Assembly: GCA_963835065.1 (NCBI GenBank)
Contig: CAWIEK010000049.1
Coordinates: 480,001 to 544,000, forward strand
Source: an uncultured Chthonomonadaceae bacterium
GTDB taxonomy: Bacteria > Armatimonadota > Chthonomonadetes > Chthonomonadales > Chthonomonadaceae
DNA length: 64,000 bases
Reading direction: 5' to 3'
Below, one piece after another: positions 1 through 11,537 of the stretch. The notes under the pieces are model-generated. The model saw only the letters and a list, made by a program, of their open reading frames with translations, had not been told where the DNA came from and ran no database searches. The first letter of the stretch is position 1; the number at the start of each line of letters is the position of its first letter. The position numbers and the translations under genes are program-made.

Positions 1-894
1 TTGCTGCGTTAATTGTGCTTCGCGCTGCCGGGCTTGTTCCAGGTCAGACTGGAGAAGCGCGGCTTTCGCATCATTTTCTGTTGCCTGCCTGACGCGCGCC
101 TCATCCCGCGCCTCCATCTGCCTGCGCAGGGGCAACAAAAACCCGATTATCAGTACGCCTGCCGCAAACGCCGCCCCCACTCCGAAGGAGACGAGGGAAT
201 TCGGCGCGAGAGTAAAGTTCGGCAGCCATTTCGCGCGCCGGCGCTGCCAACCTGTTTCTGCTATGGGTTCTTTGCCGGAAAGTGGCGCGTCATTGTTCGG
301 CGGCGCGTCCGCTTTTGGAAGCGCGGCAGGCGCGGCGTCCGGGACAGGCAGCGGGGGAGCGGGCGCAGTAACAGGCGGCGCAAGCGGCGGCGCGAAGGCA
401 GTTGAACCGGCCAGGGATTGAAACACCTTCTCGGCATCCGTGTGGAGTTCCCGCAATTCCCGCGCGTCCCGGCGGCACAAATGGCACTCCTGTAGATGGG
501 TCTCGACTCGCGTTTTATCGGGCGCGCTGAGTTCATCGGCAGCGTAGCGAGAAAGGTCTTCCTGCGCGATACACCCCCAATCCTCTTCCTGCCAACTGTC
601 TTCCGCTCCCTGCGCTTGCCTCCATTCCTCTGCCGCCCGCTCCGTCTCCTCCCACTCGCTTTCCGGCTTCGCGCTGTCCTTCCATTTCGCTTCCTGCACT
701 TCGCTTTCCGTTCGGGCAAACAACTGCAGGAGTTGCGCTTCGACGGCAGGCGCTTGAGAATGCAGAGCGCGGCGGCATTGCTCACATTCGCTCAGGTGCG
801 CGTTTGCGGCTTCGGCAAAGGGAGCAGGATGCCGCGCATGGCCGAGGATACGGTCAATTTCTGCGGGTGTCAGATGTGGATTGGTTTCATTCAT
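1..894 (-). CDS. Membrane anti-sigma factor with two zf-HC2 (ZAS) zinc fingers; 3' end runs off the window
   Basis: Hand translation from ATG at 894 (not in ORF track, no stop in window): MNETNPHLT...AHLSECEQC...CIAQEDLSRYAADELSAPDKTRVETHLQECHLC, then Pro-rich linker, TM helix (VSFGVGAAFAAGVLIIGFLL) and coiled coil. Directly downstream of the sigma gene. Confidence 0.8.
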   Translation of the reverse strand, partial: MNETNPHLTPAEIDRILGHARHPAPFAEAANAHLSECEQCRRALHSQAPAVEAQLLQLFARTESEVQEAKWKDSAKPESEWEETERAAEEWRQAQGAEDSWQEEDWGCIAQEDLSRYAADELSAPDKTRVETHLQECHLCRRDARELRELHTDAEKVFQSLAGSTAFAPPLAPPVTAPAPPLPVPDAAPAALPKADAPPNNDAPLSGKEPIAETGWQRRRAKWLPNFTLAPNSLVSFGVGAAFAAGVLIIGFLLPLRRQMEARDEARVRQATENDAKAALLQSDLEQARQREAQLTQQ

Positions 895-970
895 CGGAGG
901 TGATTCATCCAATTTCAAGGCAATTTCAAACTTCATGTCGCAGCAAAGTTGGGCGCTGCCATACATAACC

Positions 971-996
971 GTTGGTGAGTTTCTATAATTCTTACA
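971..996 (-). promoter_or_regulatory. Putative ECF-type promoter TGTAAG-N13-CACCAAC upstream of the anti-sigma gene
   Basis: Minus strand reads TGTAAG aattatagaaact CACCAAC; the same two half-sites recur at 6048-6074. Confidence 0.55.
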
Positions 997-1021
997 TCAG
1001 AATGCCTGACAGCATGCGAAC

Positions 1022-2053
1022 TTACAACAGGGGTGGCTCACCAAGCCGCTTCCTTATCTGTTCCAGATAGTAGCAGCGCATGCGATGCACTGCGCCGGCC
1101 GTTTTCCCATAGCGAAGGGCCATTTCTTTATCCGGCAGCGGAAGGCGGTTCCAAATTGCCTGCATTGCATCAGGATCAATTTCCAATGCGGCGGCAACGG
1201 AGTCGCAGGGATTCTTTGAGGTTACAAAAGATTTGAGTTCCTCGCGGTCCCGCGCCAGCAGAATATAGGCGCGGAACGGCATAGGTACGCTGCAAATTGC
1301 CTGCCAGCAGGGTTCCCAATTCCATATAGTCTTCGGCTCTTCCGGCGCGGTAAGCCATTTCTCCGTATCCCTGTTCTCATTCTCGCCCGGTTCCGGTAAT
1401 GCAACGGTGACAAGCGGCAATTCCGCGCGCAGTTTCACCAGATGCGCAGCTAATGTATCTTCCTCCAGCGGCGTTTGTACCCATTCTAAAAGTTTTACCA
1501 ACAGTTCCGATAAGCTGACCTGCTTATAATTTGCCGGATGGCGTCCCTGTAAGGCTTCCTGTACAAATGTCGTATCGTCGTCGCGAAACGCGCTATATCG
1601 CCGCGTTTCCCGAAAATCCTCATGTTGCCAGTTGGCGAAGCCGACCAGCCATTTTTTCTTGATCTGCCAGCGCGCCAGAAGGGTGTTCAGCGGCGGCTGC
1701 CGTAATCTGTCGCGCACATCGCGTTCCATGCGGCCTTCCGGGGAATTCCGTCGAAATTCTTCATCAAGGAGACGGTCTACAATTGTTGCCGCCAATCCCA
1801 AAACGTTCGTAACCGGAGTCTTATTGTCGCGGTATCTTCTCAATTGGTTAAGGATTCTAAAACGCGCTGTCTGACACATATCTTCGGCATCGGTACGCGA
1901 AAACCCCTCCGCCGCTATACTTCGACGGATGAGTGGAGCAAGGTCGCCAAGAAGCGTTTCTTCCAGACGCTTAGACGCCTGCAAATCTATGGCAGCCGTC
2001 GCATAGTATTCCTCAAGCAGACCTGCCAATCGTTGGAGTTTCTCTGAATCCAT
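1022..2053 (-). CDS. Expanded ECF-like sigma-70 family factor
   Basis: Sigma2-like segment DAEDMCQTARFRILNQLRR and C-terminal HTH-like segment LPDKEMALRYGKTAGAVHRMR. Likely start MDSEK at 2053; the longer ORF reads through a palindromic element. Confidence 0.7.
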   Translation of the reverse strand: MDSEKLQRLAGLLEEYYATAAIDLQASKRLEETLLGDLAPLIRRSIAAEGFSRTDAEDMCQTARFRILNQLRRYRDNKTPVTNVLGLAATIVDRLLDEEFRRNSPEGRMERDVRDRLRQPPLNTLLARWQIKKKWLVGFANWQHEDFRETRRYSAFRDDDTTFVQEALQGRHPANYKQVSLSELLVKLLEWVQTPLEEDTLAAHLVKLRAELPLVTVALPEPGENENRDTEKWLTAPEEPKTIWNWEPCWQAICSVPMPFRAYILLARDREELKSFVTSKNPCDSVAAALEIDPDAMQAIWNRLPLPDKEMALRYGKTAGAVHRMRCYYLEQIRKRLGEPPLL

Positions 2054-2080
2054 GCCTTCTCCGCGCCATCGCCACATTTT

Positions 2081-2280
2081 GCCGGGTATTTTCAACGCTT
2101 GCTGTGAACTACTGGCCGTGTGGTTTACCGGGGGTTGAAAACCCCTGTCTGGACAAAGCAAGCGTCTTTCAGACGCGCCCAGGCTTTCGGGAAGTTGCGT
2201 CTGGAAGACGCTTGCACTTTCCTGCCGGGGATTTTCAATCCCCGGCCAGTATTTCACAGCAAGCGTTGAAAATACCCGGC
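2081..2280. mobile_element. 200-bp MITE/REP-like palindromic element
   Basis: 37-bp terminal inverted repeats (gccgggtattttcaacgcttgctgtgaa(c/a)tactggcc, 1 mismatch) with nested internal hairpins. Confidence 0.75.
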
Positions 2281-2285
2281 TACAC

Positions 2286-5200
2286 TCATTTCCAATCGCC
2301 AACCATCTGGAACGCCGCCCAATAGTAGGGATGCTGCCAAAAATGTTTTTGGTCATGCATTACCGCGATTTGCGCCCGCTGCAGCGCGACATCTTTGCTT
2401 GCTCCCGCTTTGTACTCGGTGTAGAAGCGTTTCATCAAGGCGTTGGCGCTGTTGGCGTCCACCTGCCATAAACTCACGCCCACGCTGCGCGCGCCCGCAT
2501 ACTGGAAGGCCCGCGTCAGTCCTACGACGCCCTCAAATTGCGTTTGTTTCCCCAACCCCGTTTCGCAGGCGGAAAGCATGACCAGATCGGCGGGCAAATG
2601 CAGGCGCAGAATATCCGCAGCGGTCAGCAGGCCCTTATCCGCGCCGTCCGAACGGAGTACGAGGGCGGAAGAAAGCGGGTCGCCATTTACCAGCAGGCCG
2701 TGACAGGCCAGATGCACAATAGTGGCCTGCCTCCCCTGCTGTCGCAGCGGCACACTGGTGGCCTGCTTGCCGGTATACGCTTCCACGCGATTGCCGTACA
2801 GGTTTTTCAAATCCGTAATCTGCTGCGTGATTTGCGGGACGAACGGCAGATGCAGGTTGTTTTGCTCCGAAGCCGGGACGGCCAGCGCGAGGATTTTCCC
2901 GGAGTGGGAAACCTGTATCTGACGCAGTTCGCGGTACAGGCTCAGGGAGGCAATCACGTGCAGGGGTTTGGCCTCTATCAAATGCGTGACCGGTTTGGGC
3001 TTTGCCGAATGTCCGACCGGCTTGTCCGGTGGAGAGGTGACCAGAGCGGCAAAGGGAAGCATATTCAGAACGCCGTCGGGACACAGCAGCAGGCGGTCAG
3101 AAGCGGCAATCTCCTTCTGCGCGGGCGCGACCAGTTGCTGATAAAGCAGGCGGGCGATAGGTTGGTAACTGCCGTTCGTTAGCAGCGCCCCGCGCAAATT
3201 CCGAACTTCCCGGCCAAGCGTTTCCTCGCCGATAGCAAGCGGAATGACGCGAACCTCGGTTTTGTTGGTCACGACAAACAGGTAGCTTTGTTTCTCGCCA
3301 AGCGCATACGCCAGCAGCAGGGTTCCCTCGTTCAGTGTCTGCTGCGCTTCCGCAAACGTCAGCGGTTTGGGATAGTGCAAGCCCGCGTAATGCGGCGAGG
3401 TCTGGCGAACGGTTGTTTCCAATTCGCGCTGCTTCGCATCCAGCGCTTGAATCTTGTCGCGCAGTTCATTGGCTTCAGCCTGTTGCGAATTGGCAGCCGC
3501 CGCAAGTAATTTTCGCGCTAACTCGCTGCGTTGCTGGGTGATTTGCCGCTGTTCCGCCAACTCCGGGGGCGCATCCGGCAGGGGAAGCGTGGAGGCCGAT
3601 GGTTCCCGTTCGCTGATCAGGTCTACAAGGCTGCGGGCGCGGGCGCGTTCCAGCGTTTCAAACGCGCCTTCCTTCTGGTTCAGGGCGATTTGCGCCTGCA
3701 TCATTCCCAAAAAAGGAACGGAATAATGTTCCAGCAGAAACGCGCGGTTTTCGGGGTTGGCAAGCTGCCCGCGCCGCGCTTCCACAATGTTCACGGCGTG
3801 GTCAAATTGCTTCAAGGCGTCTTCATTCTTGTGCTGTTCCAGCAACGTATAGCCCAAACAACCCCGTGAGTAAGCTTCCTCCAGAGAGTCAGGAGCGAAT
3901 TTCAGCGTCAGGTCGAGCATCTGCTGAAAGTGGCTTTGCGCGTTGTTGAAGTCTTCCTGCCGCGCCTCAACATACCCAAGCAGGGCATAGCTTTCTATCA
4001 GACTCGCAGAAGCGGGGGAGGAGCGTTGTCGAATTGTCAGCAACTCCTGCGCGTACTGCCGCGCCGGTTTCCAGTGCCCTTGTTGGACGGCTGCCAGGCT
4101 CAGACCTTCCAGCAAGACAGCCCTTTCCGCCGGGTTGGAAGTATTTTTCAGTAAAACAGCCGCTTTCTGAGCGTATCCTTGCGCGTCCGACAAAGCGCTC
4201 TGTAGAATTGCGACCCCATCCAGAAGGCGCAAAACCGTCGCTGTTTCAGAAAGCGGCGAACCACAATTCTTACAAATGGCGAGAGCGCGTTTATAGTAAC
4301 CTTTCGCCTGTGGTAAATCTCCTTCATTAAGCGCGACGATTCCCAGTGTATCCAGGGAAGCACACATATCAAGGGGATAAGGCTTTTGCTTCTCATAAAT
4401 ATCAAGCGCCATCTGCGCGTACTTCCGCGCGTCGTCTAATTTATACTGTGGCAAGGCAAGAATTCCAAGTTGTGCGTAACAAGTCGCTTCCTCTTGTGTG
4501 CCGGGAAGAATTTTGTGGCGGATAGCCAGCGCTTCCCACATATATTCTTCCGCCTTCAGAAAATTTCCTGAACCACTCTCAACTAAGCCCAGGTGTACAA
4601 GAATATCCGCATGAACAGGAGAGCCGGGCATCTTCTTGCGGGCCAGGGAAAGCGCTTCTTCAAGATAGGGGCGCGCATGGCTGAAGTCTTCCTGCATCAG
4701 TGCGACGTGTCCCATGTTGTCAAGTATCACCAGCATTGTTTCGGGTCGAAGTTTTCTCGACGATAAATAACCAGCGCCTGACGCGAATACTCCATTCCCT
4801 GTGGTAAGCGGTTCTGGTTGAAAGCTGCAACTGCCAAATCAGCATAAAAACGATGGCAATATCCAACGAATCGGGCGCATGTTTTTGTAAAATGGCAAGC
4901 GCCGCCTCATAGTTTTTTTGCGCCTGCTGTATAATTGCCCTGCCCATCGTCGGCTCTGCCCAAGCCGTCAGAGCGCGTCTGCGGTCTGCCACGAAACAGC
5001 AGCCTGCGTCCGGCAGCGGGCAAGCGCCTGTTCATAAAGTTTACGCGCTTCCTTCCAATCCTGACGCACAATGGCAATGTGTGCTTGTTGCTCATGTCTT
5101 CGGCTTCCCAAAAAACGTTCCGGTTGGCGGCGTCCAAGTTGCCGCGCCTGCTCATACCATGTCAAAGGCTCCCGGTAGATCGTTTTGATATTCCCGCGCC

Positions 5201-5862
5201 TCGCCCAATGCAAACAGAATGCTTCTTTGTGCGGCGGCATCATCTCCCGTTTTCTCCACATTCTTCCAGGCGCGTTCCTGCCATGTCTGCACCTGTTTCC
5301 AGTCACTCCGAAGACGGTACATTTCGCCTGTTCGCCAGCACAGCCAGCCAGCCCCAGCAATATTGCCCGCCTTTTCCAGCGCTTCAATGGCGCTCTGCCA
5401 GGAAACCACGCCCTCTTCCATATGCCCGTTTGCAATATTTGTCAGTCCGGCGTCATACAAAGCTTGCAACGGAGCCGGCCATTGCGGACGAACGCGCACG
5501 TCCGACGCTTTGTCCGGCGAAAGTATTCCCGGCAATGGTACCGGCAAATGACCATCAGGGGCTGATTTGCCCGCAAGCCTTTAAGCGTGATGGCGGACCC
5601 GGACGCATTTTCCCGCGCCGCTACAAAATCAAACGCGGAGCGCAAAGGACGCGCGCCGCACCACTGCAACACATCGCCGACATGCAAACCGGCTTTTTCC
5701 GCAGAGGAACCCGGCGCAACCGCTTCCACACACCCCGGACGGCTGCGCATCATTCGGCGTTTGCGCCTGCCTGTAATTTGCAGACGCGGACTTGAACATC
5801 AGGCGGGAACCACCGACACACAGGACTACAACGACAACAAGGATACGTGAGGAAAACCGCAT
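2286..5862 (-). CDS. PDZ-TPR-CHAT (caspase-like) protease with N-terminal hydrophobic segment; N-terminal third frameshifted
   Basis: CHAT catalytic motifs IVHLACHG and LVMLSACETG, terminal HPYYWAAF; many TPRs; PDZ-like VEAVAPGSSAEKAGLHVGDVL; start MRFSSRILVVVVVLC after RBS GAAGGAAGG. Fragments in several frames between 4720 and 5862. Confidence 0.85.
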
Positions 5863-6047
5863 GAGAAACCTTCCTTCGATATTCTTCCCTGCGAACGTGA
5901 AAAAGCGCGTGGATATGCGAGCATTGAATAGACCTCTATATTCAATGCCCCTTACCTGTCTGTAAATTTTGCTTCGATAGTACAAATACCTGCTTCCTGA
6001 AAAACAAAAGATGAGGGAAAAAATTATTGAAAAATTTCTGGTAGTGT

Positions 6048-6074
6048 TGTAAGCCAGGCAAATTTTACACCAAC
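6048..6074 (+). promoter_or_regulatory. Putative ECF-type promoter TGTAAG-N14-CACCAAC upstream of the PEP-CTERM gene
   Basis: TGTAAG ccaggcaaatttta CACCAAC; matches the motif at 971-996. Confidence 0.55.
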
Positions 6075-6190
6075 TATGGAGACAAGAGCGGCGCAGGGTT
6101 TCGACAAGCCCAAGTTTTGGCCTCTTATGCCACTTTCAAGCCTGTATGGGTTGTGACGCTGGTACTTTCACTTCAGAAAGAGAATTTCTT

Positions 6191-7116
6191 ATGTACAAAA
6201 ACACGTTTAAGTCTCTGCGGCCTTTGTTTCCGGCAACGTTACTCGCTTGTTTATCTCTATGTGCCTCTACGGCACACGCGCAATTCTTAATTCGTATCGG
6301 TGACGCCGATGGCTTCGGCTACCAATCGGCTCCCGGATTCAGGGCGGCAAACGGTGGGCCGGCCAACCGTGACGGCTTGGGCATCCTTGGCAACAGGGAT
6401 TTCCTTCCCGACATCAATCGAGACGGCCAGACCGCGAGCGGCAGGGGAGATGATTTTGACCTGCGTACCGCCAACGAGATTGCTAACACCGCACTCACTG
6501 GCGGCTTTGGCGTGACCAATACCACGGGTACGCTTGGCTCGAAATTCACCGATATTTCTCTTTCGACAAGCTATGACACCAGCAGCGCAGCCAAAAGTGT
6601 CCTGATTGGCGGCAACCCGAACACAGGCTTAATTCGGGGCGCAGGCGGCGCTTTTCCGTCGCCTCCAGCGTCTTCCCTGCCTAATCAGCCGGGTTTCGTG
6701 TTCCACTTCAATGTGGATAAAACGGCTTTAAGTTCTTCGAGTTCGATTTTCTTCAATCTCGTCTTCGGCGACTATGATGTGACACGGCGGATATTCAGCT
6801 TACGGAGGCAGACAACACAACGCGCATCCTCAGTTTGGTGCAGCAGGACACAACCTCTGATGGCTTGATTCAAGCAGCCACCGCGAACCTCACCTTCGGA
6901 GACGTATTTACCGACGGCGGCTCAGTATGGATCGGGTCTCTAAAAGTGGACTTCATTGCCCCGAATGAACCCTACACTGCGTTTGACTACGTGGAGTTAA
7001 GTACCACTCCACTGGTTGCCGTACCCGAACCCGGCACAATCGCCCTGCTTCTGGCAGGTGGATTGAGTGGCACGGGATGGCTGATGCGCCGCAGACGGGC
7101 TAAACAAGTCGGGTAA
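6191..7116 (+). CDS. PEP-CTERM surface protein (frameshift near 6785)
   Basis: Signal peptide ending STAHA; C-terminal VPEPGTIALLLAGGLSGTGWLMRRRR sorting signal in the second frame. Confidence 0.85.
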
Positions 7117-7162
7117 GATAAAGAAGCCATTCCGATAGCTTTGTGCCACGCCGGGGGCTTTG

Positions 7163-8008
7163 ACCCTCAACCCCGGCCCTTCTCCCTGATTCCCGAACTG
7201 CGTTCGGAGGGAGAAGGGAGCGAGTGTCATACCTTTACCTGACCAGTGGAAGATGGACGTGTTGTAAAGATTATAATCAACGGACACAGGCTGTGCCTTC
7301 GCTCCCTTCTCCCTGCGACGAAGGAGCGAATCAGGGAGAAGGGCCGGGGTTGAGGGTACCATCTTCCGGTTGCAAACGCGCACAGGTCTGCGCAATCACA
7401 ATCAGGACACCTTCCAGATTGTCGCGCACATCGGCGTTGGTAACGCGCAGAGTATGGTAGCCGTGCAAATGCAGCCAGTCGTCGCGGGCGGCGTCACGCT
7501 CGACGGTTCCGTTGTGCGAACTGCCGTCCACTTCCACGAGCAGGCGTAACTCCGCGCAGTAGAAGTCGGCAATATACCTGTCCAGAACCACCTGACGGCG
7601 AAACTTGTGCCCGTCGCACTTCCGGTCACGCAAATACGCCCACAACCGCGCTTCCATAGGAGTCATTTCGCGGCGAAATTGGCGGGCGCGTTCCGTCAGT
7701 TGCGGACGGATACGCAGGCGTTTCTCTTGGGGCATACGTTCGTTTCCTTTCCGGGGCGGGATTGCAATGGCGATTGCTTCGACAGCGGCGTGGATGGTTC
7801 CTGCCAGGTTGTACCCTCAACCCCGGCCCTTCTCCCTGATTCGCTCCTTCGTCGCAGGGAGAAGGGAGCGAGTGTGGTAGCTTTACCTGTTGAACGTGAA
7901 GTGGGCGCATTCGTAAATCTTGTAGCTCACGCACTCACCTTCCGCCTTCGCTCCCTTCTCCCTCCGAACGCAGTTCGGGAATCAGGGAGAAGGGCCGGGG
8001 TTGAGGGT
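7163..8008. repeat. Four ~60-bp REP-like palindromes in two inverted pairs (7163-7222 +, 7300-7357 -, 7813-7870 +, 7949-8008 -)
   Basis: Core accctcaaccccggcccttctccctgatt-loop-agggagaagggagcg repeated four times. Confidence 0.9.
7331..7735 (-). CDS. DUF559 / Vsr-like endonuclease
   Basis: RARQFRREMTPMEARLW...FRRQ...YIADFYC...LLVEVDGSSH motif pattern. Confidence 0.85.
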   Translation of the reverse strand: MPQEKRLRIRPQLTERARQFRREMTPMEARLWAYLRDRKCDGHKFRRQVVLDRYIADFYCAELRLLVEVDGSSHNGTVERDAARDDWLHLHGYHTLRVTNADVRDNLEGVLIVIAQTCARLQPEDGTLNPGPSP

Positions 8009-8070
8009 ACAACCTCCCGTTTTGCAGCAGCCTGAATAGCCAGAATCAGATTTCGCTATAGCGCGTATTG

Positions 8071-8808
8071 CTACGCGCTTTCGAGCGTAAAGAACGCGAC
8101 TTCGGGCGGGCAGAGGAAGCGGAACGGCACATCCGCGTTGCCGATGCCGCGATTGACGTACAGTTGCGCTTTGCCCGTTGTGTACCAGCCTGCGCGGTAG
8201 TGTTTGGCTTTGATCCACTTCAGGGCGCGGGCGGTGAGGATGGGAACGCGCACCTGCCCGCCGTGCGTGTGGCCGGAAAACACGATGCACTCGCGGTCTG
8301 CCACAAGGTCGGCCTCGCCGGGGTTATGGGCAAGAACCAGAACCGGCGCATCGGGAGGCACGTCGGCAAACGCGGCGTTGACATCCGGCGTTCCGTACCA
8401 GTCTTCATCCAGTCCGACAAGCCACAGGCCGTTGGCAAGGCGGTGATTGCGGTTGCACAGGTATACGATGCCGAGGGCTTCCAATGCCTGCCGTATCCGC
8501 TCCAACCCGGCTTTTACATCATGGTTGCCCGGCACGGCATACACGCCCAGGGGCGCGATACCGGGCTGCATCAGGGGCGCAAGCATTTCCATGCAGGGCG
8601 CAATGTCGGCGGGATCGTCGTTGACAAAATCGCCCGTCAGCACAATCAAGTCAGGCCTCTCGCGGCGCGCGCAGGCAACGGCCTCGCGTATCACGGCGTC
8701 GGAAGTCAGGCGGCTGCGGTGAAAGTCCGACAATTGCGCCACGCGCAGGCCGTTCAATGCGGGTGGCAGATGCGGCATAACAACCCGATGGCGCGTCGTC
8801 TGCATCAC
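8071..8808 (-). CDS. Metallophosphoesterase
   Basis: LSDFH, LTGDFVN, PGNHD, LAHNP and SGHTHGGQ motifs. Confidence 0.9.
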   Translation of the reverse strand: MMQTTRHRVVMPHLPPALNGLRVAQLSDFHRSRLTSDAVIREAVACARRERPDLIVLTGDFVNDDPADIAPCMEMLAPLMQPGIAPLGVYAVPGNHDVKAGLERIRQALEALGIVYLCNRNHRLANGLWLVGLDEDWYGTPDVNAAFADVPPDAPVLVLAHNPGEADLVADRECIVFSGHTHGGQVRVPILTARALKWIKAKHYRAGWYTTGKAQLYVNRGIGNADVPFRFLCPPEVAFFTLESA

Positions 8809-11537
8809 GGCGTAGGGCGGCCCTGTGTTGAAGTTCCCGAGTGGCGCATTCTTTGCGGCGGGTTCATTTGCGTTGGGCTGCTTTGCATTAGAGTTTTCCG
8901 GCGCCGCATTGTCCTGCCCTGCCGCTTTTTGCGCCGCTTCCGCGTCCGCTTGCTGCTCCTGATGGAAGGTCGTCTGCTCTGCCTGCCACCTGCGCGCGGG
9001 CTGCGTTTTCGGTCCCGCCCTGCTGCTGTAAAGCCTTTTGCCATTCCGTTAGAACCTGATCGTACAGCGTGGTCAACCCGGCTGCTTTTTCGGGATTTTG
9101 CGCGCGCTGTAATTGGTAAATCTCGTAGCCGCGATGCTGCCAGTAAGCGCGAAGCAATCCGGCGGCTTTCTCGAACTGCGCCGCCGCTTCCTTTGCCTGC
9201 TGCCGCTCCAACAGCCATTTGCCAAGCCGCGCATGGGCAAAAGCGAACTCGGTTTCCGTCGCTTCCGGCATTGCGCGTACCGTACCGACAGGTGTTGCTT
9301 CCAGGCCGGCCATCTCCTGATAGGTTTGCGCAGACTGCGCCGCATTTCCCGATAAAGCCTGCGTTTCAGCCAGCGCGCGCAGGGTTTGCAGGTTATGCGG
9401 ATCATATATCGCGGGCGTTTTGCAGGGCGTCCAGAGCCGGCTTGTACGCAGTCGCGGCTCCTCCCTGCAAAACGCCGCTCAGGGCAAGCGGAGCATCGTT
9501 ACCGGAACTGTTTGCGCCTCCCAAAGCCTGCCGAATAGCCTGTCGCTTGTAAAACTGCCCTAACTGGTAGTACGCTTTGCCGGAGGGCGCAATTCGCGTT
9601 GCCTGCTCCAGCGCCATTCTCGCTTTATCCGGTTCTCCCATCATCTGGTATAGGCTGCTTGCTTTCGCCAGCGGTTCCGACGTAAACGGGTCTATATTCG
9701 CCGCAGACTGATAACTGTGCAGGGCGTTTTGCAGGCTGTCCCGCGCTCCCGCCGCGCCCTGCGCCTGCTGCTCCTGAAACTCGGCTACCGACAGCATGGC
9801 CTGCGCCGCCTGCAACCGCGATAGATAGGTCACGCCCCCGCGCCATGCCAGCAGCAGCGCGACAACGCCACACGCCGCCAACATTCCCTTCGACAAGGGA
9901 CGGGGCTTTTGCGTTGCAAGCGGGGCAATGTCCCGCGCCTGCGCCGTCAGAAGCCCGACAACCGCGCTCAGGGTCAGGGCGGTTGCCAGAATGTACCAGT
10001 CCGAATCGAACAGACTGTGCAGGATGGAACACACTATCGCCGCCAGCAATCCGGCTAATAGCAGGCGAGGCTCTTCAAACAATTGCCGATTGCCGATTGC
10101 CGATTTTCGATTTTCGATTTTCGATTTTCGATTTTCGATTTGGGCAGATGGCGTTGTGTTTTCCGGTAATTCTATATCGTTGATGTAGAGGTCGTTGGTG
10201 GCGGGATGCGCTTGTGACGTTGGGGCGTTTTTGGCGTTTGCGCGTGATTTGCCGGGAGTGTTTAGAAACAGGACGTAGACGGCGAAGGCGGACGAGGCGG
10301 CGAAAACAACGAGCAGGCACAGCGCGCCGGGTACGCCGGTTTCCGCCGTCCATTGCAAAAAGCTGTTGTGGGCATGGGCGGTGGGGGCGGCAACAGCGTA
10401 GCGCGGGTAGGCGGTTTCGTAGCTGCCGATGCCGGTTCCCGTCAGCGGGTTGGCGCGCGCCATGCCCAATGTCGCCGTCCATGTCACCTGCCGGAACTTG
10501 CCGGAATGGGCCTGCGTGTCCGCCGCTTCTCCGACACTGGCAACAGCAGCCGTCGCGCTGCCCGTCGCCTGCTTGCCCGTATTCGTCAGGCGAATCAGCA
10601 GGGGCGTAGACGCCAGCAGCGCGGACAGCAGCATCACGCCCAATCCGGCAAGCAACTGTCGGCCTCGCCCTCGCACAACGCCCACGCGCAGCAGCAACAG
10701 CAGCCATCCCACTACAACCACAAACAGCATTGCCACGCCCGCCCGCGAACCCGTCAGCAACAGGCACGCGGTTTGCAGCACAAGCCCCAAACCAACTAGC
10801 AGCTTGGCTTTACTTTCGCGGGCGGACACGAAGCACGACAGCGTTAAAGGCAAGGTCAGCAGCAGATACCCGGCAAGAAAGTCGGGGTTGAGAAACGTGC
10901 CGAACACGCGATGCGCGGAATTGCCCTGCTTCCACTGATCCAGATACTCGTGAATGCCCCACGCGCCCGCCAGACTTCCCGCCGCTATAATCACGAGAAG
11001 CAATGTAATTAGCGCGTTATGGTCACGGCCCAACCGTGACGCCAGCCCGCCGACTGTCAGCGCGGCCAGCAGCATGGCCCACGTATCCAGACGCGCCGCA
11101 TTGAGGGGCGGATGCGCGAACATGGAAACTGCTGCCCAAATTGTCAGCACACATGCGCCTCCCGCCAAGCCTCCTACCGCGCCAATCGCAACCGGGCGGT
11201 GCCACTCGCGGGCTATCGTCACGCCCAACGCCAGCGCGGCCACAACGCTGAGTATGGGTACGCTCATTATTTGCAGCCAACTAATCACATCTGCGGGCGG
11301 AACGGAGTTCAACGACGTAGACGCAAACACGCCCGCCATCAAGGGAGCCAGCAACAGCGCAAAGGCGACCAGGTACAACGCGATTTTATCCAGCGACGAC
11401 AGAGCGCGCGCATCTCGTTCCTGCGCCGTTTCAGACACGGATTCAGGCGCAGGCTTCACATTCCCTACAGGGCTATCCTCAAGGCCATCTTCATCAGCAG
11501 AAATATCAACAAGTCGCAAAGGCGGTGGTTCGGTCAC
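8805..11537 (-). CDS. O-antigen ligase family membrane protein with C-terminal TPRs (frameshifted near 9405 and 8900)
   Basis: Multiple TM segments, GTFLNPDFLAGYL, TGSRAG, HAHNSFLQW; TPR tail continues in other frames. Confidence 0.8.

Follow-up and report, generated by a model that had tools for sequence, protein, structure and literature searches.

A candidate split DdvA-like switch in Chthonomonadaceae: a CHAT protease, a long sigma factor and a two-finger membrane anti-sigma factor encoded by neighbouring genes

Introduction

The closest described precedent for the locus reported here is the DdvA/DdvS pair of Myxococcus xanthus (PMC11506125, PMC6061681; PDB 8ROT), in which a single-pass zinc-finger anti-sigma factor carries a periplasmic TPR-CHAT region with a His-Cys dyad and is paired with a sigma factor of the extracytoplasmic function (ECF) type. 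For this system, cleavage at site 1 in the linker and subsequent processing by RseP have been proposed (PMC11506125). Initial cleavage of a membrane anti-sigma factor by a CHAT domain is proposed but unproven for DdvA, because a single polypeptide is both protease and substrate and its signal is not known. Here we describe a locus of an uncultured Chthonomonadaceae bacterium, at the left end of a stretch of 64,000 nucleotides (contig C49 of genome G000, positions 480001-544000; hereafter the window), in which a PDZ-TPR-CHAT protease, an ECF-like sigma factor and a zinc-finger membrane anti-sigma factor are encoded by three separate genes.

Three other systems bear comparison. Type III-E Craspase (Csx29/Csx30/CASP-sigma; PMC10028731; PDB 8EEX, 8EEY), an effector of clustered regularly interspaced short palindromic repeats (CRISPR), likewise has a TPR-CHAT fold that cuts a sigma inhibitor, with non-Arg specificity; it is cytoplasmic and activated by Cas7-11 and RNA, and there is no description of Csx30 as a membrane protein with zinc fingers. 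In Anabaena, HetF is a CRISPR-independent CHAT protease that cuts PatU3, an inhibitor sequestering the regulator HetZ, after Arg117; it differs in that its CHAT domain is cytoplasmic and accompanied by a transmembrane segment and periplasmic TPRs (PMC9457339). EACC2-caspase systems combine a predicted caspase-fold sensor with an ECF sigma factor and variable sensor domains, PDZ among them, and are likewise independent of CRISPR; their architecture is a different one, with a DUF1822 partner in place of an exported TPR-CHAT protease and a zinc-finger membrane anti-sigma factor (PMC8195603). We found no published description of the split trio in the literature searched, supplements (such as tables of DdvA homologues) being outside the scope of that search.

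In contrast to DdvA, the TPR-CHAT protease is not fused to the anti-sigma factor, and both here and in relatives the two are separate genes with the sigma gene between them. The window locus further differs in its two zinc fingers, its FN3/DUF928-TPR ectodomain, its PDZ domain and a sigma factor about twice the ECF length. DdvA controls an island of CRISPR and cyclic-oligonucleotide-based antiphage signalling system (CBASS) genes. No such neighbours were seen at the window locus, and contig C49 holds no repeat-associated mysterious protein (RAMP) genes; no search aimed at CBASS was made. The Craspase profile NF041237 reached just 24.4 bits (cut-off 300), the RAMP search of C49 was empty, and RAMP clusters were found on contigs C44 and C48 alone. 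An earlier sequence-only reading of the window had drawn the parallel with type III-E systems and proposed a CRISPR-independent version; the independence is supported, but the closest precedent is DdvA/DdvS.

Results

Architecture of the locus

The protease, sigma and anti-sigma genes lie on the minus strand of the window, and a PEP-CTERM gene is divergent from them. The sequence-only reading had listed these parts, down to an intact His-Cys dyad and hydrophobic N-terminus in the protease, an expanded sigma factor and a membrane protein with two HxxxCxxC fingers, and all of them were found; profile and topology checks placed the CHAT, zf-HC2 and PEP-CTERM matches above cut-off, and recovered a transmembrane segment and a signal-like start. 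As ortholog reference we used G002, a Chthonomonadaceae metagenome-assembled genome of the same genus.

The protease gene consists of an unbroken 3' part encoding 816 aa of TPR-CHAT (2286..4736, minus strand; open reading frame 4736-2289, stop at 2286) and a 5' part (4737..5862, minus strand) encoding a signal-like N-terminus, a PDZ domain and the first TPRs, with at least seven frame breaks. The CHAT domain matched PF12770 at E 4.6e-67 (226.9 bits, cut-off 24), with both residues of the dyad, His679 (2702-2700) and Cys724 (2567-2565), in place. Matches to TPR and PDZ sit in the frameshifted pieces as far as the ATG at 5862, from which a hydrophobic, signal-like segment begins. The best structural matches of the CHAT model were Csx29 (Foldseek E 5.5e-11) and DdvA.

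The anti-sigma gene enters the window from the left, and its N-terminal part (1..894, minus strand) encodes two zf-HC2 motifs, an acidic, Pro-rich spacer, a transmembrane segment and a coiled coil; we set the start at 894 because G002 conserves it. The HxxxCxxC motifs (798-775 and 498-475) are followed by the single transmembrane segment (195-127), and the protein matched PF13490 at 27.1 bits (cut-off 22.2). It carries the motif of class I zinc anti-sigma factors on the cytoplasmic side of the membrane segment, and would bind zinc and the cognate sigma factor. Past the left end of the window the gene continues for ~770 nt (L001, 11235-12008); there, after another frameshift, it encodes the linker VTMG and then an FN3/DUF928-like and TPR ectodomain. 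Of 32 ectodomain homologues, 8 matched DUF928 (PF06051) with E values no higher than 0.01 (best 2.4e-5), and the window ectodomain itself gave just weak fn3, Ig and TPR matches. When TPR-CHAT (700 aa) and this ectodomain (215 aa) were modelled as a complex, the score was 0.00, which is evidence neither way.

The sigma gene (1022..2053, minus strand) encodes 343 aa, and its product falls below the Pfam and NCBIfam cut-offs. ECF sigma factors have a short linker between sigma2 and sigma4 and measure about 160-200 aa overall. In a structural model with a predicted local distance difference test score of 80, residues 1-104 matched region 2 of SigC (2o7g; Z 11.1, root-mean-square deviation 2.1, 87 aligned) and residues ~240-340 matched region 4 of SigE (2h27; Z 7.6, root-mean-square deviation 2.5, 66 aligned), on either side of a folded insert of ~135 aa. 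The wide structural search placed just these two end domains, and Foldseek with the whole model gave zero hits at E 0.001. Judged by the model, the protein is an ECF (group 4) sigma factor in its sigma2 and sigma4 domains; the matched ECF chains have 138-176 aa, and the window protein, with its insert, lacks their short linker. When 1.84 billion representatives were searched with a profile built from 15 homologues, 1,446 clusters (50% identity) matched at an E value of 1e-30 or lower, and the nearest Atlas clusters are labelled 'hypothetical' and come mostly from Acidobacteriota. At loci L031 and L033 the C-terminal part of the sigma factor is duplicated.

Distribution of the trio

We identified the long sigma factor in at least 69 of 401 genomes of Armatimonadota and at least 25 of 401 of Acidobacteriota (lower bounds, with five candidates scored per genome). 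The loci examined were 81 from Armatimonadota (16 + 60 + 5, training loci and near-duplicates included) and 35 from Acidobacteriota (34 of the 36 matches of the phylum search and one more). A zinc-finger gene lay 3' of the sigma gene at 66/81 loci in Armatimonadota and 30/34 in Acidobacteriota, with two fingers at 43 and 26 loci, respectively, and a CHAT gene was present at 30/62 and 18/28 of the loci with full flanks.

The presence of CHAT follows the type of anti-sigma ectodomain. Where the anti-sigma factor has the FN3/DUF928-TPR ectodomain, CHAT was found in the flank at 27/36 loci in Armatimonadota and 17/19 in Acidobacteriota, compared with 3/26 and 1/9 where it has not, giving 44/55 vs 4/35 for both phyla pooled, with an ectodomain profile trained largely on CHAT-adjacent genes. 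The co-conservation expected in the sequence-only reading is thus borne out in two phyla, and CRISPR-independent trios of this kind are widespread.

Topology is concordant in most triads: of 46, a signal-like CHAT start accompanies a transmembrane anti-sigma factor in 36, both features are missing in two, and eight are discordant, several of them probably due to the choice of start codon. Two signal-less, PDZ-first CHATs partner anti-sigma factors without a transmembrane segment. The trios of genome G011 (L026, L031 and L033) appear to be cytoplasmic, with anti-sigma factors that lack a transmembrane segment and, in L026 and L031, a PDZ-first, signal-less CHAT; the CHAT start of L033 lies off the contig.

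Other long-sigma loci carry C14 caspases, kinases or symporter-fused anti-sigma factors. At L029, L045, L053, L061 and L078, the sigma factor and an ectodomain-type anti-sigma factor have C14 proteases as neighbours, which either take the place of CHAT or accompany it. We additionally identified a second long-sigma paralog (L022:6017-7882, L023:9136-10956, L024:9130-10902, L037 and L038) whose anti-sigma factor is fused, after a double zinc finger, to a full sodium:dicarboxylate symporter domain (PF00375), which may be a transporter-type sensor for the sigma factor. L023 belongs to the same genome as the window (C49, ~320 kb), and a second symporter gene lies beside it at least in L022.

Covariation of the protease pocket and the anti-sigma linker

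Both acidic residues of an Arg-specific pocket of the CHAT/separase type are missing from the window CHAT: Gln639 (2822-2820) replaces the conserved Glu, which sits in helix 1, directly behind the first strand of the core, and Ala761 (2456-2454) replaces the Asp of the W-x-V-x-D motif. From its spacing and the separase motif, we take this Asp to be the equivalent of the separase Asp. Gingipain and MALT1 have a P1-Arg-binding Asp at the place that the Glu occupies here (PMC4626109), and separase has an invariant Asp (PMC10317155). By position, and in view of these papers, Glu and Asp likely form the S1 pocket. Among 170 non-redundant CHATs, Glu is present in 160/170 and Asp in 160/167, and both are lost in seven.

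Most anti-sigma linkers have a hydrophobic-Arg-Gly/Ser/Asp motif just N-terminal to the ectodomain, whereas the window has V-T-M-G and G002 V-T-L-G. We grouped linkers by eye, before the proteases were examined. In the first set, which left L077, L078 and L067 unclassed, Glu was present at 20/20 loci with an Arg linker and absent at 8/8 with a Met/Leu linker (the eight include two close pairs). A blind prediction, written beforehand, was then applied to 21 new loci: Glu was kept at 7/7 Arg-linker loci, all from Acidobacteriota, and lost at 7/14 Met/Leu loci, 13/14 of which had lost Glu or Asp. With nine Arg loci classed later included, the pooled count is Glu kept at 36/36 loci with an Arg linker and lost at 13/20 with a Met/Leu linker. 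The rule read from these alignments is one-way: an Arg linker needs Glu, and a Met/Leu linker frees it. On a quick tree the two traits change 8 and 7 times, and a single clade of Glu-less CHATs is rejected (approximately unbiased test, p 6e-54). His and Cys are kept in all Glu-less CHATs and at every Met/Leu locus examined.

This covariation suggests both a cut site and a switch in specificity, and supplies a candidate position for the cleavage of the anti-sigma factor that the sequence-only reading had proposed. In craspases, cleavage follows a Met or Leu (PMC11506125), and the Csx29 of Scalindua has Ser at the Asp column; a preprint on type III-B SAVED-CHAT (10.1101/2023.06.23.546230) contributed nothing about specificity.

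In the CHATs of L026, L031, L033, L040, L051 and L083, the loop before the Glu helix often bears an R-G motif of its own, possibly an autocleavage or pseudo-substrate loop; in the window CHAT this loop is short and without R-G. A CHAT paralog on another contig of the genome (G000:C48:8086-11070) has Tyr at the Glu column, keeps His, Cys and Asp, and has an ectodomain-like gene ~4 kb away.

Promoter-like sites and the divergent gene

Between the sigma and anti-sigma genes we identified a family motif, G-[TC]-A-A-T ... C-[GA]-T-C (GTAA-n17-CGTC), close to the DdvS promoter GTAA-n16-CGT (PMC6061681). With a matrix trained on the same 111 loci, it exceeded 10 bits at 52/111 loci, compared with 5/111 when the reverse strand was scored and 2.3% among shuffled sequences. 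No motif emerged from sampling 5' of the starts of 108 sigma or CHAT genes.

In the window, the place of the family motif is taken by a variant, TGTAAG-N16-CAAC, 5' of the anti-sigma gene (971..996, minus strand, reading from 996), and a second one, TGTAAG-N17-CAAC (6048..6074, plus strand), that faces the PEP-CTERM gene 117 nt 5' of its start codon, within a block conserved in G002; both are kept in G002. Across the 8-Mb genome there are 10 copies of the pattern TGTAAG-N16/17-CAAC, two of them in the window. With 14 copies expected this is no excess, and inspection of five further sites revealed no clear regulon. A sigma-70 promoter scan of 5700-7400 found nothing. A TGTAA-N12-TTACA palindrome at 6048, considered as a shared element, was rejected as absent at other loci.

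The PEP-CTERM gene (6191..7116, plus strand, with one frameshift near 6785) encodes a secreted protein that matched TIGR02595 at 31.1 bits (cut-off 16) and has the signal peptide, PEP motif, transmembrane segment and basic tail of such proteins, in a genome with four exosortases. Its body is an orphan, with zero homologues among 300 other genomes of the phylum. PEP-CTERM neighbours were found at 6/62 loci in Armatimonadota and 1/28 in Acidobacteriota, the last overlapping a CHAT gene and probably spurious, and a conserved fourth gene is rejected on these counts. The cargo differs in G002, which has a small secreted Gly/Pro-repeat protein and an NHL-repeat PEP-CTERM protein; the former (L020, ~4680-5010) is built of G-G-P-G-R-P-G-T repeats and heads the divergent unit. 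The output gene of the sequence-only reading survives as a divergent gene with a promoter-like motif shared with the anti-sigma gene, but not as a conserved member; it is a likely output and plausibly an exchangeable target rather than a core part.

Frame breaks

In the 1.1 kb of the CHAT 5' part, short indels lie near 5730, 5551, 5161, 5137 and 5080, and the frame shifts again near 4970-4930 (where there is also an in-frame TGA), near 4850 and at 4742, whereas the 2.45-kb 3' part has none. For comparison, 51 conserved genes of the genome, 62 kb in all, contain 4 frameshifts (0.064 per kb). The anti-sigma gene, the PEP-CTERM gene and an unrelated ligase-like gene (9-11.5 kb) are also frameshifted, each once, and the G002 CHAT copy is broken at other places. 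Differences between the broken part and G002 fall mainly at third codon positions (0.27/0.20/0.40 over the three positions), as in the sigma gene (0.26/0.21/0.38). In run X1, from a near-identical strain and possibly the source sample (one contig, depth 2), a frame-restoring base is present at 4742. The breaks in the CHAT 5' part are probably assembly errors, because the 3' part is clean, the third-position pattern is kept, neighbouring genes are broken too and X1 restores 4742. Of the repairs from reads called for in the sequence-only reading, X1 supplies the one at 4742.

Repeats and flanking genes

A 200-bp palindromic repeat, resembling a miniature inverted-repeat transposable element, lies between the CHAT and sigma genes (2081..2280, no strand). 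It is a nested palindrome with related sequence at 155 genome sites, 19 of them of at least 150 nt, and G002 has a CHAT-sigma gap of 20 nt at this place; the repeat is not part of the conserved module. The module as a whole is accessory: in G001, where it is absent, the metallophosphoesterase and P450 genes that flank it here lie side by side. Beyond the PEP-CTERM gene, a DUF559 endonuclease-like gene (7735-7331) lies between two palindromic repeats of ~210 bp (7152-8022), and the G002 counterpart has similar repeats without a matching gene hit. The O-antigen-ligase/TPR-like gene at 8805-11537 has at least one frameshift and encodes 886-900 aa in G002 and G001.

Discussion

We judge it somewhat better than an even chance that the locus encodes a two-protein, split form of a DdvA-like trans-membrane switch, in which a predicted exported CHAT protease would cut the anti-sigma linker and release the long sigma factor. 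The PDZ-TPR-CHAT protease would rest until a periplasmic or surface signal binds PDZ or TPR, and would then, as site-1 protease, cut the periplasmic linker and clip off the FN3/DUF928-TPR ectodomain, here probably after the Met of V-T-M-G and in most relatives after Arg. An RseP-type M50 protease would complete the release, and the freed sigma factor would transcribe the anti-sigma gene, as feedback, and the divergent secreted PEP-CTERM gene; M50 proteases and exosortases are both encoded in the genome. The frame breaks are taken here as local assembly errors. More tentatively, and with rather less than an even chance, the long sigma factors, as a large and unmodelled family (at least 1,446 clusters at 50% identity), may be switched by exported caspase-like proteases that cut the anti-sigma linker at a readable site, and protease pocket and site may have changed in concert from Arg to Met/Leu on several occasions.

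A number of observations weigh against these proposals. Roughly every second long-sigma locus lacks a CHAT gene in its neighbourhood. The linker classes rest on reading by eye, L077 has neither linker motif and keeps Glu, and a second linker Arg (R-A-G) follows the Met of the window by six residues, although it is not kept in G002. Our prediction that Arg-type loci also keep Asp was rejected for the Acidobacteriota of the blind set, where 1/7 did so, and 7/14 blind-set Met/Leu loci retain Glu. Only three independent pairs fall on well-supported branches (two in the same direction, none opposite, one without difference), which is not significant. The window sites are weak with the family matrix (7.9 and 7.4 bits, at a background of 1.7 per kb at 7 bits), the PEP-side site of G002 scores below 7 bits, and a strong site precedes just 1/8 other PEP-CTERM neighbours (L087, 18.8 bits). 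Finally, at least seven breaks in 1.1 kb are far above background, and just one of them could be compared with a second data set.

The retention of Glu at half of the blind-set Met/Leu loci would also suit a CHAT that does not cut, and serves as a co-receptor holding the ectodomain, with Met/Leu as a securin-like pseudo-substrate and another protease making the site-1 cut. Securin does inhibit separase through a large hydrophobic residue at the place of the P1 Arg (PMC10317155), and autoproteolysis of DdvA is itself merely proposed (PMC11506125). We nevertheless consider this unlikely, given that every Met/Leu locus examined keeps His and Cys, and that acidic residues were lost repeatedly, Glu just where Arg is absent, as if the pocket still read P1. 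The CHAT gene might instead be an output of the sigma factor or a passenger independent of it, whose product cuts itself or other secreted proteins, with the sigma/anti-sigma pair as a chassis for exchangeable sensors. Pairing of the same sigma family with symporter-fused anti-sigma factors, kinases and C14 proteases would fit, as would the R-G loops that several CHATs bear beside the Glu helix; but CHAT presence follows one ectodomain type, its pocket residue follows the anti-sigma linker, and the family promoter was not found 5' of CHAT or sigma genes, which makes a passenger role improbable.

If the 5' breaks were real, the copy would be decaying, the repeat would uncouple the operon, and a sigma/anti-sigma pair would remain with at most a truncated, cytoplasmic CHAT. 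The density of breaks, with an in-frame TGA among them, the accessory nature of the module (absent at the G001 site) and the broken G002 copy speak for decay. Its probability seems to us low, in that the 3' part is free of breaks, the broken part keeps the codon-position pattern of the sigma gene, the unrelated ligase gene is broken as well, X1 restores one break, and 5/8 other long CHAT genes of the genome are open over at least 995 aa.

The split switch remains our preferred account, and what is new in it is the covariation of pocket and linker together with the promoter, which make the general claim of a sigma switch testable. A system that is split, with a predicted scissile bond and natural pairs of Arg and Met/Leu type, can be tested directly by swaps. 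The long-insert sigma family has no above-cut-off coverage in current profile libraries, and would come with a promoter consensus. If the proposal is true, it would provide a specificity rule for many uncharacterised bacterial TPR-CHAT proteins. On the more tentative, family-wide reading, a lock-and-key code would insulate paralogous switches, the cut site would be predictable from sequence, and the window locus would be a Met-cutting member that drives a swappable surface-protein cassette.

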